A stretch of 64,000 nucleotides of DNA from Nitrospiraceae bacterium. Its GTDB lineage: Bacteria; Nitrospirota; Thermodesulfovibrionia; UBA6902. Every line of letters starts with the position of its first letter. The stretch's first letter is position 1. The notes under the pieces were generated by a model. It made no database searches. It was not told the DNA's origin and saw nothing but the letters and a program-made list of their open reading frames with translations. Shown here in pieces: positions 29,449 to 47,140 of this stretch. Both the position numbers and the translations under genes were made by a program. The stretch spans positions 10,372-74,371 of the forward strand of contig QZKC01000083.1 of the NCBI GenBank assembly GCA_003599425.1, given 5' to 3'.

Positions 29449-29567
29449 TTACTTAAAAAAATGATTTGGTTAACATTATTCATCCCAATGAAATCTTGCA
29501 GCAGTTGCAAAGAAAAGGCCTCTTCCACTGAACTGAGAGGCCTCCTGTTTTGCCGGCAATTCACGTC

Positions 29568-30050
29568 TTATTGAGCCTGCAATCTTCTGATAAAGGCATC
29601 AAACTTGATCGTATTGGCATCAGGACGGCTCAAGGTCCCTACGCCAACCAGTTCCAGGAATCCACTGTCAACACAAGGGAAAAAGGCTTCATAATTCTTT
29701 AAACATGCGCCTCTAATTGTAGCAGGAGTCTGGCCGTCCCACACCTGCTGCGTCATCTGCGTGAAAATGACATTTTGACTTTGCGGAACAATGCCGGTAC
29801 ATTCACAATTCTGCTGCTGGGCAACATTACCGGAGACATAGACATTGTTCGTGTCAGGATTGCGGGTCAGCGTTATCTGCCCCCTGTATGCGTTTTCCAC
29901 ATATTCATATTTGACTCCCGGCGTATTACAACCATCGCCAGGTTCACCCGATCTGCCTCCCGCTGCTCCCCAAGCAAGAGAGGCGGACACAGTTAAAAGC
30001 AGTGTAATTAATAGACACATCATGTTTGATCTTTTCTGAAATGTGATCAT
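29568..30050 (-). CDS. small secreted protein, last gene of the giant-protein cluster
   Basis: 160 aa. A signal peptide is present (LLITLLLTVSASLAWG). The mature part has 6 Cys. No family was recognised. Confidence 0.5.
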   Translation of the reverse strand: MITFQKRSNMMCLLITLLLTVSASLAWGAAGGRSGEPGDGCNTPGVKYEYVENAYRGQITLTRNPDTNNVYVSGNVAQQQNCECTGIVPQSQNVIFTQMTQQVWDGQTPATIRGACLKNYEAFFPCVDSGFLELVGVGTLSRPDANTIKFDAFIRRLQAQ

Positions 30051-30127
30051 TTTTTCTATCCTCCTTTTTTATATCATTAACAGCAATTCACTTTAACAAA
30101 TAAATTACTTTCCACCTCCTTCATCCA

Positions 30128-31468
30128 TCAGTTAAAAAAGACGCTAATGTTCGCAGAGACATACTCTGATTTAGTCGTATTATTCGTACCCGCAAAACGG
30201 TTCCTGTATGCCAGGCTCGCTGTAAAGGGGACCGGGAATTTCTTGTCCAGATACTTCTGGATCGTAGAGTAACCAAGTGTGATAATGTACATGTGAGAAG
30301 TCAGGTCAGTCTCCTCTTCCAGCGAAGAATACATCGCATTGCCGCTGCCGTCGACTTTGTCTCTCATTTTAGCAGTGTACACGTACTTAGCCCCTACCGA
30401 AATCTCCTTTGTGATCGAGTAATCACCAAAGACTTCAGCTTCAAAAATGTCCCCGAGGTCCCTGTCCACAGTCTCCTTCCGGTCTGTGAGCGGGAGATTT
30501 ATGTCCTGAGGGACCCTTTTTTCCTCTGAGTCAGGCAACTGGATGTCATATCGCAAGGTAGTATTAAGAAAAAGGTTCTTTATCCCGTTATAGTCCGCAA
30601 AAAGCCGCACAATGATATCTGTCTGCCCGTCACCCATGGGAAGAGCAACAAGACTGTCCGGGTCAGCAACTTCACCTGTAGGAAGGCGGACACCTCCTGT
30701 CGCAGCAAAGCGCCAGTCGTCCTTGTCATAAAACTTGTATTTTGCAAGAACTTCAATATCGCCAACACCTGAATCAGACCAGGTCTCAACTCGTTTGTAT
30801 CCGAAACCTGTTATATCAACTGTACCATTACTGTCAAGATCGAGCCCACTGCCTAAAAGGCCTTGCACATCCTCTGTTGTTAACCTGAAGTCTCCGGTAA
30901 TTCCAAATACTCCAAGCGTACTCTCAATGGAACGCGGGAGCAAGGCCGTAGTATTGGGAATGCTCGTTGCTCCGGCAAAAGCTGCGCATTCAGCCGAGGC
31001 ACTGTTAAAACAGGGGTTCTTGATGACATTGGCGTTCTCGTTATTTACTTTTGCCTTCACTTCATTTTTCGAATAATTATAGGGAATGAGAACTCCTATC
31101 GAAAGATTATCGGTAATGCCATAACTGAAGGCAAACTCCCACCATCTATAGACAAAATTAAAGTCAACTTCTGAATTGCCCAGAGTGGCGCCGCTTGCAG
31201 GAAAAGCAAAGGGCGTGGCAGCAAAGGCCGCTTCCAGCGTGCCCAGGTCGCCAAATACCGAGCTGTTCAAGTTAGTATTATAGTTGACGGCAATATCCTC
31301 CGGTTCACCATCAGGATCATAGCGTTCATCAATATCATTATAATGATAATATGTGGCATCAATATTATAGACTCCTCTGGGGAGAACCTGCGCCGTGTCA
31401 GCAAAACCCACCACAGGAACCAACAATACACATGCAAGCGCAGCAGCTACGGGTACAGTAATTTTCAT
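30128..31468 (-). CDS. outer-membrane beta-barrel protein (MetA-pathway/'transporter'-family-like)
   Basis: 446 aa. The signal peptide ends GFA|D. Amphipathic strands alternate throughout and the C-terminus is aromatic (NISVFFN). The start LPRGVYNIDATYYHY resembles that barrel family. Confidence 0.6.
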   Translation of the reverse strand: MKITVPVAAALACVLLVPVVGFADTAQVLPRGVYNIDATYYHYNDIDERYDPDGEPEDIAVNYNTNLNSSVFGDLGTLEAAFAATPFAFPASGATLGNSEVDFNFVYRWWEFAFSYGITDNLSIGVLIPYNYSKNEVKAKVNNENANVIKNPCFNSASAECAAFAGATSIPNTTALLPRSIESTLGVFGITGDFRLTTEDVQGLLGSGLDLDSNGTVDITGFGYKRVETWSDSGVGDIEVLAKYKFYDKDDWRFAATGGVRLPTGEVADPDSLVALPMGDGQTDIIVRLFADYNGIKNLFLNTTLRYDIQLPDSEEKRVPQDINLPLTDRKETVDRDLGDIFEAEVFGDYSITKEISVGAKYVYTAKMRDKVDGSGNAMYSSLEEETDLTSHMYIITLGYSTIQKYLDKKFPVPFTASLAYRNRFAGTNNTTKSEYVSANISVFFN

Positions 31469-31493
31469 CTTATGCCATCCCTCCTCTTAATGG

Positions 31494-32657
31494 TCATCGT
31501 TCTTTGTTCCTCATATCGCTGTCTTCATCATCTCTACCGCTTATATATTCTTTTTCCTTCTTTAATTTTTTCCACTTCTTCTGTTCTTCTTCCCACTTAT
31601 CGCGATCTTTTTCTTTCTTTTTACACTGCTTCTTCCACTTGTCTTCCCATGCTTTCTGCTGCTTCTTCCAGTTTTTTGGACTCCTGGCTTTCCAGTACTT
31701 TTCATCTTTTGGCTCCAAGGTGACTGTTATTGGTTTCTGCTTCTTCCAGTTTTTGTCTGATGCCTTTATGAAACCACCTAAATATCTGTACTCCTCTGAA
31801 TAGTTAACAAAAGCCATGATCAGATAATTGTCTTTCACAAAGTTCGTAAATAGGGCTGTCCCTGTTGTATCTGTAAAGCCCGAGGCAACTGGTACAAGAT
31901 TATTCCATATCAATGAATAAAGCTCGCCCTTGTCGCAGATTTCCGTATATGTTTCTTCATTAATAGCAACTGATATGTCTGATAATCTGTACAACCGGAC
32001 TGGAAGATTGTCCAGTGCCCCATCAATACCACGCACTTTTACAGTAATTAATGATGCAGGCGCTGGTTTTTCAGGTAAGATCTCAAAGGCCACTTTGATC
32101 GATGTTAGGGGATTAAAAACCCTTATTCCCGGATCATCCATACACCCAAGAGTATTTCCGTCCTGATCTATTTCCAGCTTAAAATATGTGACAAGAGGCA
32201 CCTCTATCTCTGCCTTGCAAAAACCGCACTTTGTCAGATCATAAAAAATACGTGCATCATCTATTACTTTATAGCTGCCCCATCCCTGTGGGATGATCTC
32301 AACGGGCGCGCATTCTCGCCCCTGAAACCAGCGTGGAGGGCCAGGCTCTGCATCTCCTCCTATAAAACTGTTACGTATTATGGTCCCGTCAGGTGCTGTA
32401 TATTTTATGAGCAAATAGAATTCCTGCTGCATAAACCCCTGAGGGACTATGAGATCATGCCCGCTGTTATTAACAACATTCACCTGCATCTTTACCGGTT
32501 CTCCCGGCTGATATTCAGCTTTTGACGATACAAGATTGATCGTTATCGGGGAGTCCTGGGCGCTAACCGCCGCGATCAGCATGAATGACAATACTGTACA
32601 ACCCGCGATCTTTCCAAATAATAGTTTCAGTATCTTCATGTATTCCTCTCGCCTCAT
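31494..32657 (-). CDS. secreted protein with Ig/carboxypeptidase-regulatory-like beta-sandwich regions and a Lys/Trp-rich C-terminal tail
   Basis: 387 aa. Its ATG overlaps the stop of the giant gene (ccATGAgg at 32654-32657). A signal peptide follows the second Met. The last 86 aa carry repeated WKKQ-type units. Confidence 0.65.
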   Translation of the reverse strand: MRREEYMKILKLLFGKIAGCTVLSFMLIAAVSAQDSPITINLVSSKAEYQPGEPVKMQVNVVNNSGHDLIVPQGFMQQEFYLLIKYTAPDGTIIRNSFIGGDAEPGPPRWFQGRECAPVEIIPQGWGSYKVIDDARIFYDLTKCGFCKAEIEVPLVTYFKLEIDQDGNTLGCMDDPGIRVFNPLTSIKVAFEILPEKPAPASLITVKVRGIDGALDNLPVRLYRLSDISVAINEETYTEICDKGELYSLIWNNLVPVASGFTDTTGTALFTNFVKDNYLIMAFVNYSEEYRYLGGFIKASDKNWKKQKPITVTLEPKDEKYWKARSPKNWKKQQKAWEDKWKKQCKKKEKDRDKWEEEQKKWKKLKKEKEYISGRDDEDSDMRNKER

Positions 32658-35600
32658 GGCTCGGATTTATTGTTGATCATGATCTGTCCAAGTGCAAAGT
32701 CACTCAGGAAACCAGCCCTGTCCCAGTTGTTGCTGTATGTATACATCAGACATTTGGGATCGCTCGTATGTCCATTAATACCCAGCGCATGACCTATCTC
32801 ATGGAGTATGGTAAAGGTCTGAAGCTCAAGCGGCGTATACTCTTTGGATATAAGAAGAGCATCATCAACGGGTGGGTTTTCCACATGTCCGTCTCCGTCT
32901 GCATCAAAAACGCTGAAATCATAACCAACTGAGTAATCATTACAAACAGATGTGCATGCCGGCTTCCACCCTGTCATCATGTGATCGCCGTCAAGGACGT
33001 CATTTACGATCAGGCTGTCTTCAGATAGAGTTGTTACAGCACCGGTATACGGATTCATATATGGAAGTATCTCAGGACCTTTTCCGTTCTCTCTTCTTTT
33101 ATCTTCAACAAGATCGATGGGATCAAGAAGCCCAACATATGATGGATTTAAGGGGTTTAAAGATTCATCCCTGTAAGGCCTGTTATATACGTAATGCATA
33201 AGGTTCAAATGGTATGTATAAGCACTCTCTGATTTTCCAGAGTAGGGGTTAAAATGGTAGTGCATTCCATTCCCAATATAACTTGCGCCCTTTGTAGACC
33301 AGGCCCATAATCTCGAGGCAAGATGCACGATATATCCGTTACTGTAACCCATGAGTGTGCTCGTGTCTGTTGTGTTATTGGTAACGATCAGGATGTCGAT
33401 GTTAGGCGGTTCAACTATATTCCCCTGACTGTCTAAAAGCTTCCCAAAGGATGGCATGCGTGTTACATCATGCATGTCGATCCCCGCCTTTTCATATGCA
33501 TTGCCTCCTGTTATATCAGTCCTGAACTCCAGGACATCAGGCGCTGTATTGGGTGGACATGAATTGGCGTAATTATCACCACGAACAAAGAGGTCCTTAT
33601 GCTCTGGATTGAGCCTCTGATGATACGTGCCTGTAACATTGCAATTGCTGTCTGTATTTTCAAAGATGATCCCGCGATACTCTTTGAAGTTGCTCAGTCC
33701 GTCACCGATTAACGTATTGGACTGCGTTGTATCGATATCCTTCAGCCCGTCATCAAGGCCAGAGCCGAATGAGAATGGATTATCAAATTGAAATCCGTCA
33801 GCAGAGTGCTGTTTTTCCCATGCATCCGGCAGAGAGTCCCTGTCTGAATCCAGCGGCAATGTCAAGTCACCCTGTACCGATGTACCGTCAGGCGCAGCAG
33901 ATGTGATCCTGACAACAGCCTGGCCTCCGTAATCAAAGGAATACAGATTCACCGATGCCGTGGAAAGGGGGCTTCCGCCTGCATAGACTGTCGCCGCAGT
34001 TACGCTTCTGTTTATTGCGTTAAAGCTGTAATCATTTGTCGATGGCAGACCAGGGTCGTCTGTATCATTCGTCGCAATACCCGGCAGGCTCGTAGTTATC
34101 AGGGCAAATAACACGTTACCTGAAAAGTTAATGTAACTGTTCGTCCTGATATCTTTTAGCCGGACTTCAACCGTGACCGAATTTCCATCTTCAGGCAGCC
34201 ATGTGCCAGTAACATCAGCGCCCGTGCTGTCTTTAGCAGTAAATTCAACTTTATAAAACGACCCGAGAGGAGTAGGGTCGGGGCCGGCAACAATAGGGCC
34301 TGTGCCGTCCGGGTCACGAGGGCCGTCACTTACAAAATCGTTATCAGTGTCAGGGTCTGCTGGAAGAGTACCATAGGTCAACTCATATGAATTTAAATAT
34401 CCATCGCCGTCAATGTCATCATCACAGGCGTTACCAATACCATCACTGTCTATATCACTTTGATCATTAGCGATCAAAGGACAATTATCTGATACGTCCG
34501 GTGTGCTGTCATTATCATCGTCAGGATCACAAACATCTCCATATTTGTCGCTGTCATTGTTGCTCTGAGAACTGTTTGCATTCACTTTACAGTTGTCCTC
34601 GCCGTCCTTGATCCCGTCACCGTCCGTATCAGCTTTATTGGGATCGGTCTCACCCGCATCTACTATACCGTTACCGTTAGCATCTTCTGCCCGGTTTGAA
34701 AGTCCATCACCATCACTGTCAAGGGTTGCAGGGTCTTGGGTTGAACAGTTGTTCCCGGCACAGCTCGCAGTTGTAGTCCCCTGAGAAGGGGCCTGCTGAC
34801 ACGCATCCCCGATCCCGTTATTGTCGGAATCAGCCTGGCTGGCATTTGCAACATTCGGGCAATTGTCCCGTGCGCCTGTCTTGGGACTGTTAAAGTAAAG
34901 ATTGGCACATATCCCGTCTCCATCCGTATCATTATTGGGGTCTTTGGGACATGGATCAGTGCTGTCAAACTGTCCATCATAGTCGCTGTCATCACAGACA
35001 TCCCCGATACCATCCTTGTCCATATCTTTCTGGGCTGCATTGGAGACGTTCGGACAATTGTCCACACGATCATCAATGCCGTCGCCATCGCTGTCCTGTA
35101 TCGCATCAGGCTGACCATCATGGTTGGAATCAAGGAAGTCCAAACCGTCACAGTTTTCATCAATGCCATTAAAATCCATCTCAACTCCCTGAGGATTGAC
35201 GCTGGCAGCAAGATCATCGCAGTCAGTTTTTGTCATAACGAACCCCGGACGTGGTTTTGCGCACGTAGCATACATCCCGCCAAAGCCGTCCCTGTCGAAA
35301 TCGAAATAATATTTGGCAGATGGATTGGGATCATACAATACTGTCATGCACCCTTTCAACGACTCTATCATCGGCAGGTAGGTACAATACGCTTCTTCGT
35401 TCAAGGGGTTGCCTGAAAGATCCAGGCTTACCAAATTCTTCGCATACTCAAGCCCCATCAGGTCTGTGATTCCGCTGTTTCTCAGATCAAGCGCGGTAAA
35501 CGTCAGCATTTGCGCTTCTGTCGGTTCACCATATATACCCAGTTTGGTTTTAATTGCTTCTTTCAGATTTGTATCAGCAATGAATATTGCTGTACCCTCA

Positions 35601-38600
35601 TCCACCTGTCCATTGCAGTTATTATCTACTCCATCACACATTCCATCAGGTTCGCCGGGGTTAATAGTCGGATCTGAGTCGTTGCAATCTACCGTAGAGT
35701 CATATCCGTCTCCATCAAGGTCAATAGTATCAACCATACAGTCACAGTTGTCATCTTTTCCATTGCCCGGTATCTCTGTTATCTCCGGATTGATTGTCGC
35801 ATCAGCGTCATCACAGTCCGTTCCCTCTGTAACATACCCTGCCCGCTGCTCTGCGCACATTGTGTCCACATCTCCGTATCCATCTCCGTCAAAGTCGTAG
35901 TAGTACATTGTCCCTGCAGGCTTCTCATACATTAGTGCTGTACATGCACTGTTTGACTGAATCTGAGGCAAATAGGTGCAGAAGGCCTCATTGTCCAGAG
36001 GGTTGCCGGTGAGGTCCAGGCTCTTCAGGTTCTTTGCATACTCAAGTCCCATCAACTGCTCTATTCCAAGATAGCTCGCATCCAATGCTGTAAGCTGAAG
36101 CATCAGCGCCTCAGTAGGATCTCCATGTATGCCGAGCTTCTTCTTGATCGCATTTCTCAGATTCGTATCCGCTATGAATACCGCTATCTCTTCGTCTGTC
36201 TCACCGTTGCAGTTATTGTCCACTCCATTACATACACCGTCAGGCTCTCCGGGATTGATCGTCGGGTCCAGATCATTACAGTCATTACCTTTGGCTGCGG
36301 CTACAAAACCGGCACGCGAATACGCGCACGTTGCCAGCATTCCTCCATATCCATCTGCATCGTAATCAGCCTTGTAGTTTGGCGCAGGGTTGGGATCATA
36401 GATGATATTTGCGCACCCGTTTTCGGACTCTATCATCGGCAGATATGTGCAATAGGCCTCGGCATCCAGCGGGTTGCCGGAAAGGTTCAGGCTCACGAGG
36501 TTCTTTGCATACTCAAGGCCCATCAGATCAGTGATTCCTCTGTTGCTCAAATCCAGTACCGTAAGCGTCAGTATCTCTTCTTCTGTCGGGTCACCTGTTA
36601 TTCCCAGAACTTCTTTAATAGCGTTCTTCAGATTTGTGTCCGCTATGAATACCGACATCTCCTCATCCACCTGTCCATTGCAGTTGTTATCTATTCCATT
36701 ACATACTCCATCCGATGCTCCGGGATGAATAGTCGGATCCAGATCATTACAGTCATTGCCTTTGGCTGCGGCTACAAAACCGGCACGCGAATACGCGCAT
36801 GTTGCCAGCATTCCTCCGTATCCGTCCGCATCATAATCAGCCTTGTAGTTTGGTGCAGGGTTTGGGTCATAACTTATATTCGCGCACCCATTCACAAATT
36901 CGATCATAGGCAGGTATTTGCAATAAGCCTCGCTGTCAAGCGGGTTGCCCGTGAGATTAAGGCTCTTCAGGTTCTTCGCATACTCAAGTCCCATAAGATC
37001 AGTGATCCCTCTGTTGCTCAGATCAAGTACCGTGAGCGTCAGCATCTGCTCCTCTGTGGGATCACCCGTTATCCCCAGTGCCTCTTTTATGGCATTCTTC
37101 AGATTTGTGTCAGCAATGAATACTGTAATCTCGTCATCAATCTGTCCATTGCAGTTGTCGTCTATTCCATTGCAATCTCCATCCGATGCTCCGGGATGAA
37201 TGGTCGGGTCCAGATCATTACAGTCCGTTCCGCCTGATGCAATTGAATCATATCCGTCATTGTCAGCATCTGGATCACATGTATCGCCAATCTCATCGCC
37301 GTCAAAATCTGACTGGTCAGTGTTGGCTATATTCGGACAATTATCTTTGCAGTCGGCAACTCCGTCACCATCAGTATCTGTATCTGGAATTCCGCAACCG
37401 CATATGCCAGGCTCTGTCTTTAACGGATCATCAGGACACTGGTCAATGCAATTTTCAGTATCGCCAAAATCGATCATTCCGTCACAGTCATTGTCTAATC
37501 CATCAGAGCAACTCTGCTCAGGAGTCTCTGTGGGGTTGCTTGGCACACAGGTATCTGTTTGAATTCCGACCGTACAGGTCAATTGTCCGACTGATGCGCA
37601 TACTCCAACTCCACACGTTATCGGCAAACCGTACCAGTCTTCACCGGAACCGTCAATCGTTGTATCATTGCAATCGTTATTCTTTCCATCACAAATTTCA
37701 AGTGCTCCGGGATATATCTTATTGTCGCTGTCATTGCAGTCATCACCCGGATATGTCTGGCACCCGGCAGGGACACAAGCAGTTCCCGTACAGGAGTCAG
37801 ATACTGATGAACTGACAAGTCCGTCATTGTCGCTGTCGCAATAGTAGGAAATTGAATAGCCGGTCAATTTATACAGGGATCCAGTAGTCCCACTTTGTGC
37901 ATCTACATCTAAAGCAGCAAGCTTTCCGACACCTACTTGGTACCACTCAAGATCAGTAACAGCATAGTCTGGCAATGATACACACAGGTTGGATTCAACG
38001 ATATTGTTTTGCGCATTTGACTGATACTTACTGTCATACGTTGCCCATAGAATAACACCGGTCAATGACGGATCAATTCCGTATACACTCTTAAGATCAG
38101 GATCAAGTTTATCCCATTCGCGAATCAGAACAAAATTCGTTGGTTCAAATGCATTAAAAAACTGTCCGTCAGTAAAAGTGTCAAACGTCATTGGTGTGAG
38201 ATTGGATGAAACACCGTCTTCGACGTAATCGTATATGGTTACAGAGCTTCCATCGTTATAACTAACCAAATAATTATTCGCGGTTCCTTTGCTGCATGCT
38301 GGATTACCTGAAAATTCAGAACATTCAAATATAGTTTCTGTATATGTATCAAATGGATCAACAGCATTCGTATAGGTCCAGAAACTCCCTAACCCAAGAG
38401 GGAAGTAGGGTGCAAAGCTTATCGGGTTACTTAAAACACCTTCATCTATCTGCCCGTCACAGTCGTTATCCAGACCGTCGCAGATCTCAGCCTGCGGCTG
38501 GTTATTCTGTACGCACGTCTGAGTTCCAGATGCACAGGTTAATGTTCCTGCTGAACATATTCCCGGCACTCCAGTATCACATACTCCATTTGTTGCGCCG

Positions 38601-41600
38601 TTACAGTCAGAGTCTGCACAGTCAGTAGATCCATCCCCGTCATTGTCAATATTGTCAAAACAGTTTGTCTCAGTTGACGTCTGGCAGTTAGTATCTGCCA
38701 AATCTATCAATCCATCACAATCATTATCCACTGCATCACTGCATGTAGGATCATCTGCCGGCCCTTCTGTCTGAGGCGTTCCCGGCGTGCAAGTGTCTGT
38801 TTGAATCCCTCCTGTACAGGTGAACTGCCCAGTTGACGCACATATTCCTACTCCGCATGTTGTCGGGACCCCGTACCAGTTCTCACCTGAACCGTCAGCA
38901 GCAGTGAGATTATCGCAGTCATTGATCTTGCCGTCGCATAACTCTGGAGCACCTGGATAAATAGTATTATCGTTATCATTGCAATCACCCTGATTTTCCG
39001 TGAATCCGTCGCCATCGTTATCTATATCATTAGAATTACAAACGTCATTTATTCCTCCAGTTCCGGACAGAGGTACATATACATTTGGATTATTCGGAGC
39101 ATTCGAAGGGATATTCAATATTCCTGTGTATCTGATAGAGGTTGAAGGCTGAAATCTTACCCTGATCGTGCAGGATGCCGAGGGAACTAAAGTGCTATCT
39201 GAACAATTATCAGTACCTGCCACAATGCTGAATGTATCTGAAGGAGATGAAATTGTGCCGATCGTCAGATTCTGTATCCCGGTGTTACTTACTGTGATCG
39301 TGTTGTCCCAGAACTCTCCCGTATTCACACATCCAAACTCTATGTTTGTTGGAGTTACCGTAATAGCCGGTTCAATCAAAGCGAGATCATTTACAGTTAT
39401 CACTTCACCAGATTCAACAACGTCATTTCCATCAGGAGTACATGTGACTATCATTGTATCTGAATATAAGTTGTCCTCATCTGCCTGCACTGTCCACGTT
39501 CCTCCCATGATAGGCAGACGGTAGTATCCATCAAAGTCAGTATCAGTTCGGGTATTGATCCAGCCAACAGATGTCTGACTGGGACCATTCAGTGCATTAT
39601 CAGTCCAAGCACTGATCCCTACATCCGATGCAGGGGTTCCGTCACCCCTGTATACCCTGCCTTCTATTGCGCAGTCAGCATAATATGCATAAAGCGTTAC
39701 CGGCTTGTGCTCTCCATCAGTGAGTCCTGTGACATCTACATCCTGAGATGGGACCATCTCTTTAGGTTCGTTATTGATCTTCACGGGGTAGTCGTGACAG
39801 TTCAGGCACGTGCCGACCCTCCAGTCACCTGCATTAAGTCCTACCACTGCATGTCCCGTCGCATTGGTGTAATCAGCATTGCCCAGACTCTGGAGCACAG
39901 GGTCTGAAGTATTGATCCTTCTGGCATAGCAGAGAGCACCTTCAACAGGCAATGCCCCATATTCATCCATGACATTACATTCAAGCCATGCTGTTTCCTT
40001 ATGCAATACAAAATGAACAGTTGCGGGAGGAATGACATTTACAGAATCATAATAATTATTGGCAGGAATCTGGGGGCCAAAATATCCGGGAGCAATATCA
40101 TCATCAATTGCGATATTCCATGTCACTCCGGACAGAACTGGTATTGTATAGTTCCCGTTGGCATCAGTAAGTACACCAACCCCGTTGCCGCCAGGGACGT
40201 CTGCATCAACTTCTGTCCCCCAAATGGGCTTGCCCGTTCCGTATTCTGTTACCGTCCCCGTGATCTGTGAATCTGAAGGTGCTAAATAAAGGTTAAATCC
40301 TGTTATGTCAGAATTGAAAATTATTGCAGTAACAGACCGTTCAAGGTATCCAGTTTTCTGGGCACCAATTTCATATCTTCCTGAGCGCGGGATATGCAGG
40401 GTGTAAGCGCCATTGCTGTCAGTTAGCGCGGCTGATACCCCTTGTCCTGTTGTTACATCTTCTGCAACAACAATGGCCTCGGGCACAGGTGTTGTAGTTC
40501 CTTCCTCATAAACGACCCCCTGGATCTTATACGGAGCCGGGACTATCGGATCGGTCATCGTAAAGTCTACTGAAGCTGTATTGCCGCAGGAATTTTTTAC
40601 TGTCATGGTTAACGTCGTACCAGGCAGGAGATAGCCATCTGCATTTCCAAAGGGATTAAAGACTGTCGTAATATTTATGTCTGCCGGGTCTGCATCTTGA
40701 GTCAACGAATCGTGATCATTCGCTGCATTGTCATATATAACTGCCATAATTTCATCGTTGCCGAGTTTAAACTCGACCGCGCCGCCATCTTCCGCAGCCT
40801 GTGTGTATAATGTGAAGCCGGTCCTTGTATCAGCAGGGGCTGAAGAAGGGCCGACGGATAAGGTGATGGGAGGACATGCCTGATATACAAAGCTTTCTGT
40901 GCTTACTGAATAATTGCTTCCGCTGTCCAGTGCGAAAACCTTAAATGTATAAGTATTCCCCGGTATGAGAGGTGGGCCATCGTATAACAACCCTGAGTTA
41001 GTCAAGTTACCTGCATCCCATAAATACTCAGAAGATTCATTCAGCAGCATAACTGTATAGGCATATCCCGCGCCAATACCTGACCATGAAAAATAAGGCG
41101 AACCCATAACTGTCTGTCCGTTGGAAGGTGAGAGATTTGCCGGGACATTATTTACAAAACGTTTAATACTGTCTGTCTTGACCGTGGTATTAAAAGGGTC
41201 GGTTATGGTTATTGTGTAGACAATTGGGAATGGATAAGGCGGCAGACTGCCTGTGCTGAGAGTGATAACCTTTTCCCATGACTTCCTAAAGGTATTGTAA
41301 TCAAGAGTGATTAAACCATTTATGCCGGGGCCTTCAACGGTAACAGATGTTGCGAGACGACCGGGGTCCTCAACGAATATTCTCGCTCCGTATTCATCCT
41401 GCCCCCCCGGATTTTTCCAGTGGCCTGATACGGCTTCCGCATGATAATCATACCATGGGTTCGGATTTACTATTGTGCCGTCAACGAGGGTTATGTCCAC
41501 TCCGTGGACAGCAGTCCCCCCGCTTATGACAACCGGAGTAATATTGCCGCATCCGCTGTAAATGCCCCACGGGTCTGTGGGCTGAAGATCAGTACCCGTC

Positions 41601-44600
41601 TGGATCACCGAAACCACATAGTAGGTACCGTCGGGAAGGCCAGAAAGTGTATAAGCGCCAAGAGAAGGAATTTCAGTGGCGACAGCCGGATTACCCGGGT
41701 TTTGTGGAGAACAGTTGATAGGCGATGTGAATGCCGCAACATAAATATTTCCGCTCTGCGTTCCGCTGTATGAGATAGCGCCGGTGATGGAACCAGCACT
41801 TACAGCAGGCTCAACGAACCTTCGGAAGTTGCTACCGTCAAGATCTGCGAAGTAAAGTTCCCTCGCAGAATCAAAACCGTAGATAGACTGATCAATGGGC
41901 GGGACAATGGACTGCAGGTCTGCTATCTGTGCTCCTGAACTGTTGTAGAGGGCGCGATGCGTCAGGCTGACCAGATTGCCTGATTGGGTGTAGAAAAGGA
42001 TGTTCTCATCCTGACACAGGTCAGAAGGACAGAGATTCGTCTCAGTACCATTGGCCAATACAACATATAATGGTGTTGACTGAAATCCGGGATCAGACTC
42101 GGGCAGACCGTTAAATACGTGATAGTAGAAGAGGAAACCATTAGAATCGTTTCTGGGAGAGAGCATATTCCATTCACCCAGATATTCGCTCTTTATGATT
42201 GTCCTGCCCGTGCCGTCGGCATTCATCATTATCAGCCTTTCATAGTGGCTTGTGAAATAGCCTGCATCCTGCCTGTATTCAATCGCAATGATCTTTGATC
42301 TGTCCGGTGATAGCCAGAACATTGCTAATCTGTACGGCGCTACAGGGGACGCGATGGTAACAATGTCAGTGCCGTCGGCATTCATGCTCTTGACCTCGCC
42401 GTTATCATTGAAAATCACCTTGTCATTGTTGTCAAAGTAGGCAGCAGTATCATTGTTTTCTGCATGAACAGCTACGGGAGTTTTGGTGCCGGAAGGAATA
42501 TCATAAATATAAATGGTCGATGAGACATCATCGAATTCCCTGAAGACGACCTTGGTCTTCAGTGAGTTCATGCTTCCGAATGTAAACAGGTTATTGCAAT
42601 TGTCTTTCAAAGTGCTCAGCCCTGCTACCCCGGGATCATAAAGATAAAGGTCCAACCTTGTGTCCTCCCCGCAGTTTACTGAATCAAATGCGATCATCGG
42701 GATCATTTCCAGCGCGAGATTTGCACAATTCGTGCATCTTGCGCCAACAAGAATCTCTCTGTGAGAGAGTTGATTTGAATCAAAGCTATGATTGATGATT
42801 ATCGTATTCCCGTTGTTCCCTATCGCTCCCGCATAGGAAGGCGCAAGATCACCAATTGATAAACCAAAACTGCCATCAGAAGAAACAGAGATATTTAAGC
42901 CAACACTCCCAAATTGAATATTTCCATCTCTTTGTCCTTTATATGATATTGTGCAGTTTCCACTACTGTCACAAGTCAAAGTGCTAAATGAAGCAAAAAA
43001 ACTGGTACTGCTATCATCTCCGAAGCCTGCTAAAGCCCATGTCCCTGCAAGGTCAGCGGTGGAGTAGGTCTTGTCACCTTTCTTCATAATGAAAGTAGCT
43101 TGCCAATCAGTAGCAATATCCAATGATGCAGTTAATGCAAGCGTGCCGTCTCCTGTCATTACCCCTTTGGCATTTCCACTGTTAAGCAAAATTGAGCCAT
43201 CAGGGTTTACAGAATATGTATCTGTATCGTTATCAGTCAAAATTATTCCATCGCTGTTAGCCGTATTGGCATATAGATAACTATCTACCCCATCAATCAA
43301 GGCGGTGCCTGACCATACAATATGATATCCGGGCCAGTTAGTTCCTGTGCTATCATGGTCATAGCCAATAGCATAATACTCCCCGCTCAAATCGGCACTG
43401 GTATAAGTCTTCGTCTCATCCATCCTTATCAAGACTCTTGCCCTCTGTCTGCTACTCTGGTCAGTGCCGTCCATGATCATCATATTTCCATTATCAGAAA
43501 TCGCATATCTTCTAATTCTTGTCACTGATGGATATGTAGATACAACCGTAATGCTTCCGTCTGCGTTTGCTGTGACAGTGTAGGAATAGTCCTCTATTGC
43601 AGAACTTAATATTCCATTATCATTGTCCTGGTGGGTATCGGTTCCCGTGCCATCCGCGTTAAAGGTAAGAGTTCCCCCTCGTACATGCCATTTTCCATCG
43701 TTATCATGCCGTAAACGCCCATATCCCCATTTGCCGATTATGGTAAATGTTGATGCTGATTCACATCCCGGATCATTTGCGTCTATCAAATCATCACAGT
43801 CATTGTCCAGTCCGTCATTACATGCAGGGGCTCCAGCAGGGCCTTCTGCCTGCGGCGTGCCGGGAGTGCAGGTATCATTCCAAGTTCCTGCAACGCAGGT
43901 CGCGACTCCTGTGCTCTCGCAAATTCCTTTTCCGCATACTGACGTATAACTAAGATTTTCATCTGTCTGACCGTTACAGTTGTTGTCTCTACCGTCGCAT
44001 ATCTCAGGAGCGCCGGGATAAACAGATGCATCATTATCGTCACAGTCCACTTCACCGCATGCACCGCCTTCAATGGCATAACCATCATGGTCCGAGTCTG
44101 TACAACTATTATCACATGCATCTCCTACACCATCCCCGTCAGCATCTGCCTGATCGGGATTGAAAACATCGGGACAGTTGTCATCAATATCTCTAACACC
44201 GTCATTATCCTGGTCGCTAATTTGTAGCACTTGAATTTCTCCAGATGACAAGGCACGGTTGTAAACCATAAGGTTGTCGACTTCACCATAAAATGTTCTG
44301 CCATTCGAGTAATCCGTTAATGTAACCGTCTTATCATTCCCGGTATTTAGAGCAAAATCTGCAGGCACGGATACATCTTCTAACCGAATGCCATCAAAAA
44401 ACGTGATAATATTTCTTCTCGTAAAGTCAACGGATACTACTACAGTGTGCCACTGATTAATATTCAGGATGGTTCCCGAATAAATATGTTCAAGATAGCC
44501 AGATTGAACACTCGGATCATTATTCAAAGTCAGCATAAGTTGATTAGTGTTAGTCCACTTTAGTCTGATCCACCTGTATGACTGACCGCCGATTACAATG

Positions 44601-45469
44601 GTTTTATAATTACCACCCAGATTATAGGGCATGAATTCTACACTGATGGTAAAGGCATCAAAATTAAAATCAGGGACTGTAGCTATTGCCGTATAACCGA
44701 AATATAGGCCATTAAGATACAGATTGTCGTTATTGAGAAACTGAGTATTTTCGAGATACATTGGATCATTGATTCCCGTGCTGTCATTGGCATTACCGTT
44801 AAACTTGTAAAATGCGATCAATCCATAATTCGTATCACACGCATCACCAATCCCATCGCCATCAGTATCAGCCTGGCCAGGGTTGTAAATATCTGGACAG
44901 TTATCGCATGTCTCGCCTACGCCATCCCCATCAGTATCGATGGCAGAAAGGCATTTATCCAGTTTTGAAACAAAGGCGTCAAAGTAATTGTATGATGTAT
45001 CATAAGCGCCAGCAGTTACTGGATAATCGGATGCAGAGGTTTGTCCTGTTATGAACACGTCGCCTGTTTGAGAATCCAGCGCAGCGGCTTTTGCAGAATC
45101 ATTCCCGCTTCCACCAATAAAAGTTGATGAGAGGAGGTCTGTCAGGCCATTGTTAAGCCTTGAGATAATGACATCATTGCCATAGCATATGCCGCCAGTT
45201 CCACAATAAGTATCATACGCTCCTGCAGTAACTGGATAATTGGATGAAGATGTCAGACCTGTTATGAAGACATCCCCTGTAAGGGAATCTATTGCGATGG
45301 CGTTTGCGGAATCAGCGTTGTTTCCACCGATAAATGTTGATGAGACAAGGCCTGCAAGTCCACTGCTAAGCCTTGAAACAAAAACGTCACTGCCTCCATT
45401 AAGAGATGCATCATAAACTCCGGCAGTAGTAGGATAATCAGATGAAGATGTTGCCCCACCAATAAACAT
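32654..45469 (-). CDS. giant secreted multidomain protein, main body (4,271 codons from the first ATG; the frame stays open upstream to the TGA at 45941-45943)
   Basis: SBBP-like beta-propeller repeats (IGG..D.A.AIAID..G..FITG.TSS.DYP.T.GAYD). TSP3 repeats (DTDGDGVGETCDNCPDIYNPGQADTDGDGIGDACD). A LamG-like block (LIAFYKFNGNANDS...LMVYNRALSSGEIQ). MopE-like motifs (DCDDNDASVYPGAPEICDGRDNNCNGQTDE). PD40/TolB-like and CarboxypepD_reg-like segments. Four tandem LRR-type modules. A C-terminal HEIGHALGINGH motif (32768-32803). Confidence 0.85.
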   Translation of the reverse strand: MFIGGATSSSDYPTTAGVYDASLNGGSDVFVSRLSSGLAGLVSSTFIGGNNADSANAIAIDSLTGDVFITGLTSSSNYPVTAGAYDTYCGTGGICYGNDVIISRLNNGLTDLLSSTFIGGSGNDSAKAAALDSQTGDVFITGQTSASDYPVTAGAYDTSYNYFDAFVSKLDKCLSAIDTDGDGVGETCDNCPDIYNPGQADTDGDGIGDACDTNYGLIAFYKFNGNANDSTGINDPMYLENTQFLNNDNLYLNGLYFGYTAIATVPDFNFDAFTISVEFMPYNLGGNYKTIVIGGQSYRWIRLKWTNTNQLMLTLNNDPSVQSGYLEHIYSGTILNINQWHTVVVSVDFTRRNIITFFDGIRLEDVSVPADFALNTGNDKTVTLTDYSNGRTFYGEVDNLMVYNRALSSGEIQVLQISDQDNDGVRDIDDNCPDVFNPDQADADGDGVGDACDNSCTDSDHDGYAIEGGACGEVDCDDNDASVYPGAPEICDGRDNNCNGQTDENLSYTSVCGKGICESTGVATCVAGTWNDTCTPGTPQAEGPAGAPACNDGLDNDCDDLIDANDPGCESASTFTIIGKWGYGRLRHDNDGKWHVRGGTLTFNADGTGTDTHQDNDNGILSSAIEDYSYTVTANADGSITVVSTYPSVTRIRRYAISDNGNMMIMDGTDQSSRQRARVLIRMDETKTYTSADLSGEYYAIGYDHDSTGTNWPGYHIVWSGTALIDGVDSYLYANTANSDGIILTDNDTDTYSVNPDGSILLNSGNAKGVMTGDGTLALTASLDIATDWQATFIMKKGDKTYSTADLAGTWALAGFGDDSSTSFFASFSTLTCDSSGNCTISYKGQRDGNIQFGSVGLNISVSSDGSFGLSIGDLAPSYAGAIGNNGNTIIINHSFDSNQLSHREILVGARCTNCANLALEMIPMIAFDSVNCGEDTRLDLYLYDPGVAGLSTLKDNCNNLFTFGSMNSLKTKVVFREFDDVSSTIYIYDIPSGTKTPVAVHAENNDTAAYFDNNDKVIFNDNGEVKSMNADGTDIVTIASPVAPYRLAMFWLSPDRSKIIAIEYRQDAGYFTSHYERLIMMNADGTGRTIIKSEYLGEWNMLSPRNDSNGFLFYYHVFNGLPESDPGFQSTPLYVVLANGTETNLCPSDLCQDENILFYTQSGNLVSLTHRALYNSSGAQIADLQSIVPPIDQSIYGFDSARELYFADLDGSNFRRFVEPAVSAGSITGAISYSGTQSGNIYVAAFTSPINCSPQNPGNPAVATEIPSLGAYTLSGLPDGTYYVVSVIQTGTDLQPTDPWGIYSGCGNITPVVISGGTAVHGVDITLVDGTIVNPNPWYDYHAEAVSGHWKNPGGQDEYGARIFVEDPGRLATSVTVEGPGINGLITLDYNTFRKSWEKVITLSTGSLPPYPFPIVYTITITDPFNTTVKTDSIKRFVNNVPANLSPSNGQTVMGSPYFSWSGIGAGYAYTVMLLNESSEYLWDAGNLTNSGLLYDGPPLIPGNTYTFKVFALDSGSNYSVSTESFVYQACPPITLSVGPSSAPADTRTGFTLYTQAAEDGGAVEFKLGNDEIMAVIYDNAANDHDSLTQDADPADINITTVFNPFGNADGYLLPGTTLTMTVKNSCGNTASVDFTMTDPIVPAPYKIQGVVYEEGTTTPVPEAIVVAEDVTTGQGVSAALTDSNGAYTLHIPRSGRYEIGAQKTGYLERSVTAIIFNSDITGFNLYLAPSDSQITGTVTEYGTGKPIWGTEVDADVPGGNGVGVLTDANGNYTIPVLSGVTWNIAIDDDIAPGYFGPQIPANNYYDSVNVIPPATVHFVLHKETAWLECNVMDEYGALPVEGALCYARRINTSDPVLQSLGNADYTNATGHAVVGLNAGDWRVGTCLNCHDYPVKINNEPKEMVPSQDVDVTGLTDGEHKPVTLYAYYADCAIEGRVYRGDGTPASDVGISAWTDNALNGPSQTSVGWINTRTDTDFDGYYRLPIMGGTWTVQADEDNLYSDTMIVTCTPDGNDVVESGEVITVNDLALIEPAITVTPTNIEFGCVNTGEFWDNTITVSNTGIQNLTIGTISSPSDTFSIVAGTDNCSDSTLVPSASCTIRVRFQPSTSIRYTGILNIPSNAPNNPNVYVPLSGTGGINDVCNSNDIDNDGDGFTENQGDCNDNDNTIYPGAPELCDGKINDCDNLTAADGSGENWYGVPTTCGVGICASTGQFTCTGGIQTDTCTPGTPQTEGPADDPTCSDAVDNDCDGLIDLADTNCQTSTETNCFDNIDNDGDGSTDCADSDCNGATNGVCDTGVPGICSAGTLTCASGTQTCVQNNQPQAEICDGLDNDCDGQIDEGVLSNPISFAPYFPLGLGSFWTYTNAVDPFDTYTETIFECSEFSGNPACSKGTANNYLVSYNDGSSVTIYDYVEDGVSSNLTPMTFDTFTDGQFFNAFEPTNFVLIREWDKLDPDLKSVYGIDPSLTGVILWATYDSKYQSNAQNNIVESNLCVSLPDYAVTDLEWYQVGVGKLAALDVDAQSGTTGSLYKLTGYSISYYCDSDNDGLVSSSVSDSCTGTACVPAGCQTYPGDDCNDSDNKIYPGALEICDGKNNDCNDTTIDGSGEDWYGLPITCGVGVCASVGQLTCTVGIQTDTCVPSNPTETPEQSCSDGLDNDCDGMIDFGDTENCIDQCPDDPLKTEPGICGCGIPDTDTDGDGVADCKDNCPNIANTDQSDFDGDEIGDTCDPDADNDGYDSIASGGTDCNDLDPTIHPGASDGDCNGIDDNCNGQIDDEITVFIADTNLKNAIKEALGITGDPTEEQMLTLTVLDLSNRGITDLMGLEYAKNLKSLNLTGNPLDSEAYCKYLPMIEFVNGCANISYDPNPAPNYKADYDADGYGGMLATCAYSRAGFVAAAKGNDCNDLDPTIHPGASDGVCNGIDNNCNGQVDEEMSVFIADTNLKNAIKEVLGITGDPTEEEILTLTVLDLSNRGITDLMGLEYAKNLVSLNLSGNPLDAEAYCTYLPMIESENGCANIIYDPNPAPNYKADYDADGYGGMLATCAYSRAGFVAAAKGNDCNDLDPTINPGEPDGVCNGVDNNCNGETDEEIAVFIADTNLRNAIKKKLGIHGDPTEALMLQLTALDASYLGIEQLMGLEYAKNLKSLDLTGNPLDNEAFCTYLPQIQSNSACTALMYEKPAGTMYYYDFDGDGYGDVDTMCAEQRAGYVTEGTDCDDADATINPEITEIPGNGKDDNCDCMVDTIDLDGDGYDSTVDCNDSDPTINPGEPDGMCDGVDNNCNGQVDEGTAIFIADTNLKEAIKTKLGIYGEPTEAQMLTFTALDLRNSGITDLMGLEYAKNLVSLDLSGNPLNEEAYCTYLPMIESLKGCMTVLYDPNPSAKYYFDFDRDGFGGMYATCAKPRPGFVMTKTDCDDLAASVNPQGVEMDFNGIDENCDGLDFLDSNHDGQPDAIQDSDGDGIDDRVDNCPNVSNAAQKDMDKDGIGDVCDDSDYDGQFDSTDPCPKDPNNDTDGDGICANLYFNSPKTGARDNCPNVANASQADSDNNGIGDACQQAPSQGTTTASCAGNNCSTQDPATLDSDGDGLSNRAEDANGNGIVDAGETDPNKADTDGDGIKDGEDNCKVNANSSQSNNDSDKYGDVCDPDDDNDSTPDVSDNCPLIANDQSDIDSDGIGNACDDDIDGDGYLNSYELTYGTLPADPDTDNDFVSDGPRDPDGTGPIVAGPDPTPLGSFYKVEFTAKDSTGADVTGTWLPEDGNSVTVEVRLKDIRTNSYINFSGNVLFALITTSLPGIATNDTDDPGLPSTNDYSFNAINRSVTAATVYAGGSPLSTASVNLYSFDYGGQAVVRITSAAPDGTSVQGDLTLPLDSDRDSLPDAWEKQHSADGFQFDNPFSFGSGLDDGLKDIDTTQSNTLIGDGLSNFKEYRGIIFENTDSNCNVTGTYHQRLNPEHKDLFVRGDNYANSCPPNTAPDVLEFRTDITGGNAYEKAGIDMHDVTRMPSFGKLLDSQGNIVEPPNIDILIVTNNTTDTSTLMGYSNGYIVHLASRLWAWSTKGASYIGNGMHYHFNPYSGKSESAYTYHLNLMHYVYNRPYRDESLNPLNPSYVGLLDPIDLVEDKRRENGKGPEILPYMNPYTGAVTTLSEDSLIVNDVLDGDHMMTGWKPACTSVCNDYSVGYDFSVFDADGDGHVENPPVDDALLISKEYTPLELQTFTILHEIGHALGINGHTSDPKCLMYTYSNNWDRAGFLSDFALGQIMINNKSEP
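35213..37222 (-). repeat. four tandem coding modules (471, 471, 594 and about 474 bp) inside the giant gene
   Basis: The anchor cagatcattaca recurs at 37211-37222, 36740-36751 and 36269-36280, an exact 471-bp period. Each unit encodes a MopE-like Cys motif, VFIADTNLKNAIKxxLGIxGDPTE...LDLSNRGITDLMGLEYAKNLxSLxLxGNPL (LRR-like) and a DADGYGG segment. Confidence 0.9.
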
Positions 45470-45940
45470 ATCGCCTGTCGTGGAGTCTATGGCAAGGGCA
45501 TTTGCGGAATCCGTGCTGCTTCCACCAATAAATGTAGATGCAAGGAGGCTTGTAAGATCACTATTGAGCCTTGATATAAAAGCATCACTTCCGCCATTAA
45601 AAGAGGTATCATAGCTCCCGGCAGTTGAAGGATAATTGGACGATAGCGTACTTCCCGAAATTATTGCATTTCCTGAGGAATCTATAGCGAGTGCATAAGT
45701 ATAATCAGAATTATTACCTCCAATGAATGTCGATGCGAGCAGATCAAGATTACTGTCAAACTTTGAAACAAAGGCATCTGAGGTTTCAATATCAGCGCCA
45801 TACAGATAACTGCATATTACGCCATTCCCGCAAACTCTGTCATATGCGCCCTGAGTAGTAGGGAAATCATCTGAATGTGTATACCCGGTGACATATACGC
45901 TATCCCCAGGGCCAAGTGCAAGGGCCCTGCCTACATCACT

Positions 45941-47140
45941 TCAGCCAAAACCACCGATCATCGTCGATGCTTCAAGAACGGAAAGATCATTGCTGAATTT
46001 TGATACAACAACATCAAAAGAGCTCTTGTACGCTACACCCGTTGTAACAGGATAATTAGCTGACCTTGTCCCTCCAGAGATATAAACTTTTCCTGAAGAA
46101 TCTATGGCCATGGCATTGCCTTCTTCTGTCTCGCTTCCGCCGATAACTGTTGAGGCAAGGAGGACAGAAAGATCGTTACTGAACTTCCTTATGAATATGT
46201 CCGCACCTGTGGTCCCTGCCACAAAAACATTACCATTTGCGTCGATGGCAATGGCGTTACCGATATCCGCAGCAGCTTCGCCTGCAAATGTTGAGGCCAG
46301 AAGCGGGTCAATGATGAGAGGTTTTGTTCTATCATAAGTCCCAACCTCAAAACCGTATGTGACCGAATCCTCGGGTACATTGTATGCAACGTTTATAAAT
46401 TTCTTCTTCCCCTGCTCTTCCTGATAGGCAACAGGCTTCGTCATTTTAAGGATTCCCAGTTCCGTCTCTATCTCAAGCTCCCCGTCTTTGTTTACACGTA
46501 ATCCTTTCACGCCTTCCAGGGATAGCTTAATGTCTTCAACCTCTGCTCCTCGGTTCACAGTAAAGACCTTCTCCACGGAGATTCCGTATGTCCTCAGATT
46601 AAGCTCTATGCCCTTATAGACCTCTCCCAGATTTACTTCCTGCCATGCGGGTATGTTTGACTTCCACTCTTCCCTGGCACCAATAAAGTAATGAACGCTG
46701 GTCTCTGGTTTTTTCAAACCCTTCATGGTGATAGGCTCAGGACATAACAAAGTCTCTTTGACAGCAACAGACTTCTCAACCCTATTATGATCTCCTGAGT
46801 CGCAGTTGCCTGAATTTGTTGTTGGTGGGAGATGTTCTTTCCTGATAAAGGTATAAACCATATCCCCTTTTTCATTTAAAACTACTGTGCCGTCAAATAA
46901 GGCGGCGTAAAATTTGACGGAGGGATCCTTAATCTGTCCCTGATTTTCTATAAAAGGAATCTGGCGGGATAATACGTGCTTCATCAGTAAGCTTTTATCA
47001 TTGCCTGACTGATTGTTCACAATATGACGGACGGAAGATTTCGCCTCAGAGTGATTTACATAAAGAAAAACTGCAACAGATGTAACAAACAAGAGTAAAA
47101 CTATTTTCCCAATGCCCTTCATAGTTAGCACCCGCACCAT
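45941..47140 (-). CDS. N-terminal part of the giant protein (signal peptide, N-terminal domain and first SBBP repeats), ended by an in-frame TGA
   Basis: 399 codons with signal peptide KGIGKIVLLLFVTSVAVFLYVNHSEA. The frame is the same as 32654..45469. The sequence stops mid-repeat (...STMIGGFG-TGA-SDVGRALALGPGDSVYVTGYTHSDDFPTTQGAYD...). Confidence 0.8.
   Translation of the reverse strand: MVRVLTMKGIGKIVLLLFVTSVAVFLYVNHSEAKSSVRHIVNNQSGNDKSLLMKHVLSRQIPFIENQGQIKDPSVKFYAALFDGTVVLNEKGDMVYTFIRKEHLPPTTNSGNCDSGDHNRVEKSVAVKETLLCPEPITMKGLKKPETSVHYFIGAREEWKSNIPAWQEVNLGEVYKGIELNLRTYGISVEKVFTVNRGAEVEDIKLSLEGVKGLRVNKDGELEIETELGILKMTKPVAYQEEQGKKKFINVAYNVPEDSVTYGFEVGTYDRTKPLIIDPLLASTFAGEAAADIGNAIAIDANGNVFVAGTTGADIFIRKFSNDLSVLLASTVIGGSETEEGNAMAIDSSGKVYISGGTRSANYPVTTGVAYKSSFDVVVSKFSNDLSVLEASTMIGGFG

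Follow-up and report, generated by a model that had tools for sequence, protein, structure and literature searches.

Genes for secreted proteases and genes for their inhibitors may lie directly side by side, the serralysin/Inh-type pairs being one example. Protease–inhibitor gene pairs are also formed by the KLIKK peptidases and the potempins of Tannerella forsythia (PMC9890683). In the Fap system of Pseudomonas, one operon encodes a bespoke COG4313-like outer-membrane barrel, FapF, its Sec-exported substrates and the periplasmic protease FapD, which is an obligatory component; FapF is a protein exporter, and its closest solved structure is that of the COG4313 channel Pput2725, the two having a PTG motif in common (PMC5557850). 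As for the COG4313 channels, the characterised members TcpY, SphA and Pput2725 take up hydrophobic molecules, and a lateral gate has been proposed at the PTG motif (PMC4493636). Here we describe a gene cluster to which all of these can be compared. It lies on the minus strand of a 64,000-nucleotide stretch of DNA, in what follows the window, from a Nitrospiraceae bacterium (assembly GCA_003599425.1, contig QZKC01000083.1, positions 10,372 to 74,371), and it encodes a giant exoprotein, a partner protein that we call X, an outer-membrane β-barrel, a small secreted protein, a second apolipoprotein N-acyltransferase (Lnt2) and a sensor. We rate it as an operon-encoded exoprotein with dedicated envelope partners, combining features which no known system combines.

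Our reading is that the cluster is one copy of an envelope module with about seven genes which is conserved and has spread horizontally, and that it functions along the lines proposed below; we put the probability of this reading at roughly one half. A preliminary description of the same DNA had taken the cluster to end at 29568 and had listed four genes: the giant gene, the gene of a Lys/Trp-rich protein (our X), the barrel gene and the gene of the small secreted protein. These four are the front half of a larger envelope cassette of about seven genes, as the conserved unit runs on past 29568 into the Lnt paralog and the sensor gene. What is more, the giant gene, given there as a single gene at 32654-47140, corresponds to a 14.5-kb frame of 4,828 codons that is interrupted by an in-frame TGA at 45941-45943. 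The parts of the cassette are the following.

45941..47140, minus strand: first open reading frame (ORF) of the giant frame, 399 aa, with signal peptide, DUF7948 and the first SBBP β-propeller repeats
45941..45943, minus strand: lone in-frame TGA at codon 400 of 4,828, within an SBBP repeat
32654..45940, minus strand: rest of the giant frame, 4,428 codons long and free of stops (longest ATG-initiated ORF 32654-45469)
32657..34216, minus strand: conserved C-terminal domain (CTD) of the giant protein, about 460-500 aa, ending in a metzincin domain (HEIGHALGINGH…CLMY)
31494..32657, minus strand: X, 387 aa, secreted β-sandwich partner with XN and XM domains and a Lys/Trp-rich tail replacing XC
30128..31468, minus strand: outer-membrane β-barrel, 446 aa, divergent and COG4313/PF13557-related, with a GIGD...RLPTGE motif and a Ca-binding-like loop insert
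29568..30050, minus strand: small secreted protein, 160 aa, with signal peptide, Gly/Pro-rich N-terminal tether (GGRSGEPGDGC) and β-rich domain
27886..29448, minus strand: Lnt2, apolipoprotein N-acyltransferase paralog, a second, cassette-specific copy (TIGR00546, 294 bits against a cut-off of 132.9)
25241..27724, minus strand: sensor with a transmembrane (TM) segment, a periplasmic PDZ domain, about seven further TM segments, a GAF domain and an adenylate/guanylate cyclase

In other respects the ORF listing and direct reading agree with the layout first reported: the four genes are co-directional on the minus strand with short gaps, the TGA of the giant frame shares bases with the ATG of X (an ATGA overlap at 32654-32657), and the next two gaps measure 25 nt (X to barrel) and 77 nt (barrel to small gene). 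The giant gene and X are translationally coupled through this overlap, which is found again in the closest relative, where X has the same double-Met start; in the window, X also has an alternative in-frame ATG at 32639 with its own GAGAGG Shine-Dalgarno site. Further Shine-Dalgarno sites stand before the barrel gene (AGGAGG, in the 25-nt gap) and before the small gene (AAGGAGG, in the 77-nt gap), and all four products, giant protein, X, barrel and small protein, carry N-terminal Sec-type signal peptides.

The evidence for a module comes from other genomes. Namely, about 26 loci carry the set; they belong to Nitrospirota, Desulfobacterota, Myxococcota, Planctomycetota and other groups, and the parts that recur are a variable passenger with the CTD, a partner with XN, a COG4313/PF13557-related barrel, a small secreted protein, Lnt2 and the sensor. 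We found these loci through the closest homologs of the barrel, through a search of named genomes with a profile of X (from an alignment without the window sequence) and through a jackhmmer search with the CTD, and scored 26 loci of the Lnt2 type for the CTD, XN, the barrel, the small protein, Lnt2 and the sensor. At the closest barrel homologs the order is one or more large exoproteins, X, barrel, small protein, Lnt and a PDZ/GAF signalling protein. The barrel is in the neighbourhood of 22 of the 26 loci, the sensor adjoins Lnt2 in 24 of them, often overlapping the Lnt gene, and a small secreted protein with a Gly/Pro-rich stretch right after its signal peptide is encoded directly upstream of Lnt2 in almost every locus. 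The hidden Markov model (HMM) of the small protein detects the close subfamily only, and the more distant proteins encoded upstream of Lnt2 are linked to it by position and by the shared N-terminal pattern, not by significant scores.

The internal order of the set is rearranged among the loci, which come from at least four phyla. On one Nitrospirales contig (L054/L028/L026, about 401-462 kb), three tandem pairs of a CTD-bearing giant protein and X (3,268 and 546 aa, 3,255 and 574 aa, 2,951 and 563 aa, plus a 2,102-aa CTD protein) stand before a single small–Lnt–sensor–barrel set. In these roughly 26 loci, across several phyla, the partner genes are syntenic with the orthologous exoproteins, and so, as a statement on linkage, the earlier proposal stands that a dedicated, undescribed set goes with the giant protein. 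The proposal has to be changed in three respects: the unit is larger, including Lnt2 and the PDZ sensor, the only conserved part of the giant protein is the CTD, and the barrel is a divergent relative of the COG4313/PF13557 channels. Without functional coupling, it would be difficult to account for the Lnt, sensor and barrel that come with each copy of the cassette.

The barrel is missing from all 60 relatives, which range from the same genus to the same class, and the CTD is found in 4 of the 301 genomes of the phylum; of the other three CTD-bearing genomes, two have the full Lnt/sensor/barrel context and one has the CTD–XN pair only. Lnt2 is 35-38% identical to the Lnts typical of the genus, and the ortholog of the housekeeping Lnt is another copy, on contig C69, which is 68-71% identical to those of congeners. 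In a maximum-likelihood tree, all 19 cassette Lnts and six other paralogs form one clade (SH-aLRT 97), apart from the housekeeping Lnts and with the phyla intermixed within it. The six extra members all adjoin a sensor, and most are also near a barrel and a CTD/X pair; the number of Lnt genes per cassette-bearing genome ranges from two to five. In view of the absence from relatives, the rarity within the phylum and the separate Lnt clade, we therefore regard the cassette as an accessory, horizontally spread module and not as the neighbourhood of a generic porin. The generic-porin explanation, which the preliminary description had kept in view, is likewise contradicted by the barrel itself, which is single-copy in this genome, missing from the 60 relatives and travels with the cassette. 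Synteny with congeners ends at prs (22531-23472), just below the gene at 23697..25175. A mis-binned contig was considered as the source of the island and rejected: prs is single-copy and 88-90% identical to its counterparts in same-genus genomes, and the tetranucleotide profile is typical of the genome.

The conserved element at these loci is the C-terminal metzincin CTD, paired one to one with X, and the rest of the giant protein is variable. We gathered CTD homologs by jackhmmer, the query being the C-terminal 520 residues of the giant protein, and the CTD profile matches 271 proteins at E<=1e-30 among 1.84 billion cluster representatives. Among the matches listed, CTD-bearing proteins span from about 260 to 7,372 aa, and the CTD occupies the very C-terminus of nearly all of them; the region before it varies from none, in stand-alone proteins of 481-517 aa, to unrelated modules of over 3,000 residues in all. 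In an alignment of 17 diverse CTD sequences with pairwise identity down to 27% (alignment A3), the signature HExxHxxGxxH plus Met is invariant (H472, E473, H476, G479, H483 and M491), and the CTD, judged by the zinc motif and conserved Met-turn in its sequence, is a predicted metzincin. Against PDB, the CTD profile matches the zinc sites of matrix metalloproteinases (E 7e-5). In Pfam, Peptidase_M10 scores 21.2 bits on the window CTD against a cut-off of 24 and aligns only over the zinc site of about 30 residues, and sub-threshold matches to M10 and M57 are found in 15 and 11 of the 17 sequences, respectively.

Ahead of the CTD, the first ORF of the giant frame matches DUF7948 (E 4e-47) and SBBP (E 3e-8) after a hydrophobic N-terminal segment at residues 1-31, and the remainder is a patchwork of modules of extracellular type, namely SBBP repeats, 11 MopE-like Cys motifs, LamG, CarboxypepD_reg, a choice-of-anchor D/ASH Ig domain, LRR modules and TSP3 repeats. 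As an observation on the other end of the protein, most CTD proteins in alignment A3 terminate exactly at a conserved …(I/V)HN-COOH, and the protein of the window and its closest relatives carry 1-5 extra residues past it. A conserved free C-terminus beside a PDZ-bearing sensor may be meaningful.

X has no match in Pfam or NCBIfam, a PDB sequence search with it was uninformative, and a word-based homolog search returned X itself only, probably because its low-complexity tail dominated the words. The homologs recovered through synteny have three domains, XN, XM and XC, and an AlphaFold2 (AF2) model of a full-length homolog consists of three β-sandwich domains (mean pLDDT 82.7). In the X of the window the HMM labels find XN and XM, but not XC. 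A frameshifted XC behind the Lys/Trp-rich tail was tried as an explanation and rejected, there being no XC signal in any frame. Since X proteins with XN only are present in intact-looking cassettes elsewhere (loci L065, L066 and L085), the loss of XC is best taken as a natural variant.

Across the HMM-labelled loci, XN adjoins the CTD in all but three of the CTD loci, nearly every X-bearing locus encodes a CTD in the protein beside X, the partner of a full X ends in the CTD, and the CTD gene is upstream of X in all but one (L087). The CTD–XN pair thus has the strict adjacency and one-to-one relation of protease–inhibitor pairs, down to three tandem pairs in one genome, and because of this strict pairing X is probably the cognate partner of the protease. 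The resemblance to the KLIKK/potempin pairs is that the gene of a secreted protease of metzincin type always has beside it the gene of a small to medium-sized secreted β-protein and that the two are duplicated together. In contrast to the potempins, which are encoded upstream, X is encoded downstream and has 300-570 aa in one to three β-sandwich domains; nor is it a lipoprotein, and no sequence similarity to them can be detected. Separately from the cassette, the XM+XC pair forms the extreme C-terminus of proteins of 1,000-2,700 aa at L041, L045-L051, L053, L056 and L058, in metagenome-assembled genomes of Patescibacteria, Phycisphaerae, Methanosarcinales and Nanoarchaeota, which do not have this cassette and some of which have no outer membrane. 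XM+XC therefore exists independently, as a C-terminal module of large surface proteins.

The barrel has more than 373 homologs. In a scan of the whole genome, the PF13557 model misses it even at E<=1 and matches two other genes, on contigs C20 and C44, and a PDB sequence search was uninformative. That said, PF13557 matches 14 of 31 members of the barrel family (best E 1.3e-9), and hhalign aligns the family (alignment A5) with the two PF13557 proteins of the genome at a probability of 95.3% (E 2.1e-8) over the GIGD…LPTG…GDG core. The mature barrel has about 420 aa and the members of its family 400-470 aa, as against 270-320 aa in the COG4313 channels, and by length it thus falls outside them. 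From the homology to PF13557 and the greater size it follows that the barrel is a divergent, larger relative of the COG4313 channels. It shares with Pput2725, TcpY and SphA the profile–profile homology just described, and differs from them in its size, in its large Ca-binding-like loop insert and in its context, a protein cassette instead of a catabolic operon. The preliminary description had suggested a dedicated export set. The linkage on which that idea was based is real, and the barrel may have a role in export, as FapF is a structurally similar exporter, but the known COG4313/PF13557 ('MetA-pathway') channels are importers of hydrophobic molecules. The barrel may import hydrophobic molecules rather than export protein.

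The small secreted protein has no match in Pfam or NCBIfam. Its AF2 model consists of a β-rich domain with a pLDDT of 82.2, and LolA-like matches returned by Foldseek, at E of about 1, were not accepted as evidence. Lnt2, encoded next to it, is like a canonical Lnt in scoring above the TIGR00546 cut-off and in having the motifs of the Glu-Lys-Cys triad (WPES, KMRLLPFAE and ICWE); among 25 Lnts of the clade, the Lys and Cys are kept in 20-24 and the Glu in about 18. It differs from a canonical Lnt in being a second copy, in belonging to a separate, cassette-borne clade and in having no lipobox substrate encoded nearby.

The input domains of the sensor are elsewhere joined to PP2C phosphatase or hybrid histidine-kinase outputs. 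Its TM and GAF part (residues 196-611) resembles the input region of PrsK, the sensor of XrtA/PEP-CTERM exosortase systems (TIGR02916, E 2.5e-10, 39.6 bits against a cut-off of 300). Both combine several TM segments with a GAF input, and both would be dedicated sensors of a protein-sorting-type gene set. Unlike PrsK, the sensor described here has an extra periplasmic PDZ domain and cyclase, PP2C or hybrid-kinase outputs, and there are no exosortase or PEP-CTERM proteins with it. The 161-nt spacer between Lnt2 and the sensor (27725-27885) contains several GC-rich nested palindromes (CCCTCCCCC…GGGGGAGGG and others).

Three further features flank or interrupt the cassette:

47141..47520, minus strand: non-coding leader, 380 nt, upstream of the giant gene, after a LuxR/PAS gene (47521-48426)
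29509..29546, minus strand: terminator-like hairpin with U-tract after the small gene, found by direct reading and present in the minimum-free-energy fold
23697..25175, minus strand: metallo-β-lactamase-fold protein, 492 aa (Lactamase_B E 6e-5; weak Apyc1-like match)

In the leader, a terminator-like hairpin (47400-47382) and a weak promoter-like match (47216-47189) are both at the level of chance, as are all promoter and terminator signals in consensus scans of the intergenic regions in both directions. The hairpin at 29509..29546 was overlooked by the consensus scan because its loop exceeds 8 nt; its fold is not significantly stabler than those of shuffled sequences (z -0.76). The metallo-β-lactamase-fold protein has a 495-aa counterpart downstream in the island of the closest relative (L001), beside Crp-like and CHASE2-cyclase genes, and may belong to the cyclic-nucleotide signalling part of the island. 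Farther away in the window, a GH57/DUF3536 gene (17303-19726) has a 59%-identical paralog on contig C56 of the same genome, and a 975-aa protein with a MopE-like motif (61022-63949) has C-terminal relatives of about 70-170 aa on at least six other contigs, among them C27, C45, C69, C92 and C94, which suggests that Cys-motif surface proteins form a dispersed family in this genome.

How does the cassette compare with known export systems? With Fap it shares a bespoke COG4313-like barrel with a PTG motif in the operon of Sec-exported substrates and a protease, but Fap, which we compared by description only, differs in several ways. In particular, there are no homologs of FapA-E here, no Gln/Asn-rich amyloid-repeat protein or C39 peptidase is seen among the cassette genes, the metzincin is fused to the cargo and is not a C39 cysteine peptidase, and no coiled-coil N-domain is detected in the barrel. 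Moreover, Fap systems have neither an Lnt paralog nor a PDZ sensor. Two-partner secretion by TpsA/TpsB resembles the cassette in that a giant Sec-dependent exoprotein is encoded beside a dedicated outer-membrane barrel. We rejected it: no POTRA, Bac_surface_Ag or ShlB match is found in the barrel, X or the small protein, there is no two-partner-secretion or haemagglutination domain in the giant protein, and the conserved element of the cassette is C-terminal, not N-terminal. A giant RTX adhesin of a type I secretion system was rejected as well, the giant protein having a Sec-type signal peptide and no RTX repeats, and the island having no genes for an ABC transporter or membrane fusion protein. 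The same holds for cargo of a type IX secretion system, as no sorting domain (e.g. PF18962) is matched and the C-terminus is the metzincin CTD. The preliminary description had recognised no type I, TpsB or type IX features by eye, and in the Pfam and NCBIfam domain scans the partners indeed match no POTRA/Omp85, ABC/membrane-fusion-protein or type IX C-terminal-domain model. The literature on COG4313, Lnt paralogs, giant genes and potempins offered analogies, and no description of the cassette was found in it.

With regard to function, we infer a surface-displayed modular protease with its cognate partner, a dedicated barrel, an acyl-transfer branch and control by a sensor. The giant protein would be a Sec-exported modular binding scaffold, made of β-propeller, LamG, LRR, TSP3 and Cys-rich MopE modules, that delivers a C-terminal metzincin, with the passenger free to vary among loci and the CTD fixed. 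X, made by translational coupling, would partner the CTD one to one through XN and most likely serve, either in the periplasm or on the surface, to guard, inhibit or dock the protease. The barrel would provide the module with its own passage through the outer membrane, either for the exit or anchoring of the exoprotein complex or, through a lateral gate, for an acyl chain. The Gly-tethered small protein and Lnt2 would make up an acyl-transfer branch which lipid-anchors some component of the cassette. Finally, the PDZ–7TM–GAF sensor would monitor this apparatus in the periplasm and turn its state into a cyclic-nucleotide signal, or in other hosts into a PP2C or histidine-kinase output. In the genome studied here, the module sits in an accessory island and is perhaps partly disabled, given the TGA in the giant frame and an X without XC. 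One can push this scheme further and propose that the small–Lnt2–barrel core makes up a hitherto unknown pathway of protein lipidation and surface anchoring. Lnt2 would then N-acylate a cassette protein without a lipobox, likeliest at the Gly-rich N-terminus of the small protein after cleavage by signal peptidase I, the lateral gate of the barrel would set the acyl anchor, and hence the complex of metzincin exoprotein and X, on the cell surface, and the PDZ sensor would monitor the process. Taken jointly, these steps seem to us quite improbable.

Several observations weigh against the envelope module functioning as proposed. The position of the barrel varies, after X or after the sensor, and the hairpin after the small gene, indistinguishable as it is from shuffles, could separate Lnt2 transcriptionally from the genes before it. 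Foldseek gives only generic multi-Ig or macroglobulin-domain matches for X (TM-scores <=0.24) and no significant match for the small protein (best E 0.32). Moreover, no cassette protein has a conserved lipobox, and Lnt2 is therefore without an obvious canonical substrate; the COG4313 channels characterised so far import hydrophobic molecules (PMC4493636); three secretins encoded in the genome could export the giant protein; and its many Cys-rich domains argue against it as cargo, since they would thread poorly through a narrow barrel. With the hairpin added, these last four points lead to the main rival explanation, in which the barrel and Lnt2 act on a lipid or another hydrophobic molecule. 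Specifically, the locus could serve acquisition: the protease would leave the cell by the general type II pathway, the barrel, which keeps RLPTGE, would import hydrophobic or amphipathic products or lipids, Lnt2 would process an imported amine- or lipid-type substrate or remodel envelope lipoproteins, and the PDZ sensor would report envelope load. It also agrees with such a role that the most invariant core is small–Lnt2–sensor(–barrel), the CTD and X being at times undetected. We nevertheless consider acquisition unlikely. Namely, it leaves unexplained why each copy joins its own Lnt, barrel and sensor to a CTD/XN pair and why this barrel subfamily is about 100 aa larger than the uptake channels of COG4313, and no small-molecule catabolic or transport genes are conserved in the neighbourhoods.

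A different question is whether the envelope module still works in this genome, or whether it is a decaying remnant in which the giant gene is a pseudogene, the TGA having stripped the signal peptide from the part with 4,428 codons, and X has lost XC. Across eight homologs and the sister repeats, the TGA column holds N, T, F, G or D and never Cys, the hairpin downstream of the TGA is no stabler than shuffles (z +0.44), none of the three frames contains XC, congeners do not have the island, and in the closest relative the exoprotein is likewise split into two genes. On the other side, the 4,428 codons after the TGA stay open with no second lesion, and for this reason either the TGA arose very recently as a nonsense mutation, or it is an error of the consensus or assembly, or it is read through. 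The other genes are intact with their catalytic motifs kept, and XN-only X proteins occur, as said, in intact-looking cassettes. Decay is consequently a possibility that we hold only tentatively, as somewhat unlikely. A selenocysteine at the TGA, which would make the full-length giant protein a selenoprotein, was rejected as very improbable, as the column is variable and never Cys, lies in a structural β-propeller repeat and is followed by a fold like those of shuffles; a GC-rich stem that could be drawn after the TGA does not form in the minimum-free-energy fold. Least credible of all is an inherited gene order without functional coupling, that is, a generic porin and a housekeeping Lnt placed by chance beside a large adhesin gene. 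It may draw on the intergenic scans, in which promoter and terminator signals stayed at chance level in both directions, but it is at odds with the recurrence in at least four phyla in rearranged order, the absence from close relatives, the multiple copies in some genomes and the distinctness of the cassette Lnt clade from housekeeping Lnts.

Four family-level units of the cassette, the CTD metzincin, XN, the small Gly-tethered protein and the PDZ–7TM–GAF input, are annotated as 'hypothetical' and lack a curated model; in Pfam and NCBIfam, no model covers the whole of the CTD, XN, the small protein or the sensor input. If the linkage of these units with the barrel and Lnt2 is functional, diderm bacteria of several poorly studied phyla, such as Nitrospirota, Desulfobacterota and Planctomycetota, would have in it an undescribed means of equipping themselves with very large surface proteases. 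The cassette would also be, to our knowledge, the first case of an Lnt paralog dedicated to a specific gene cassette, and it raises the question of whether enzymes of the Lnt family may have substrates beyond the classical lipoproteins.

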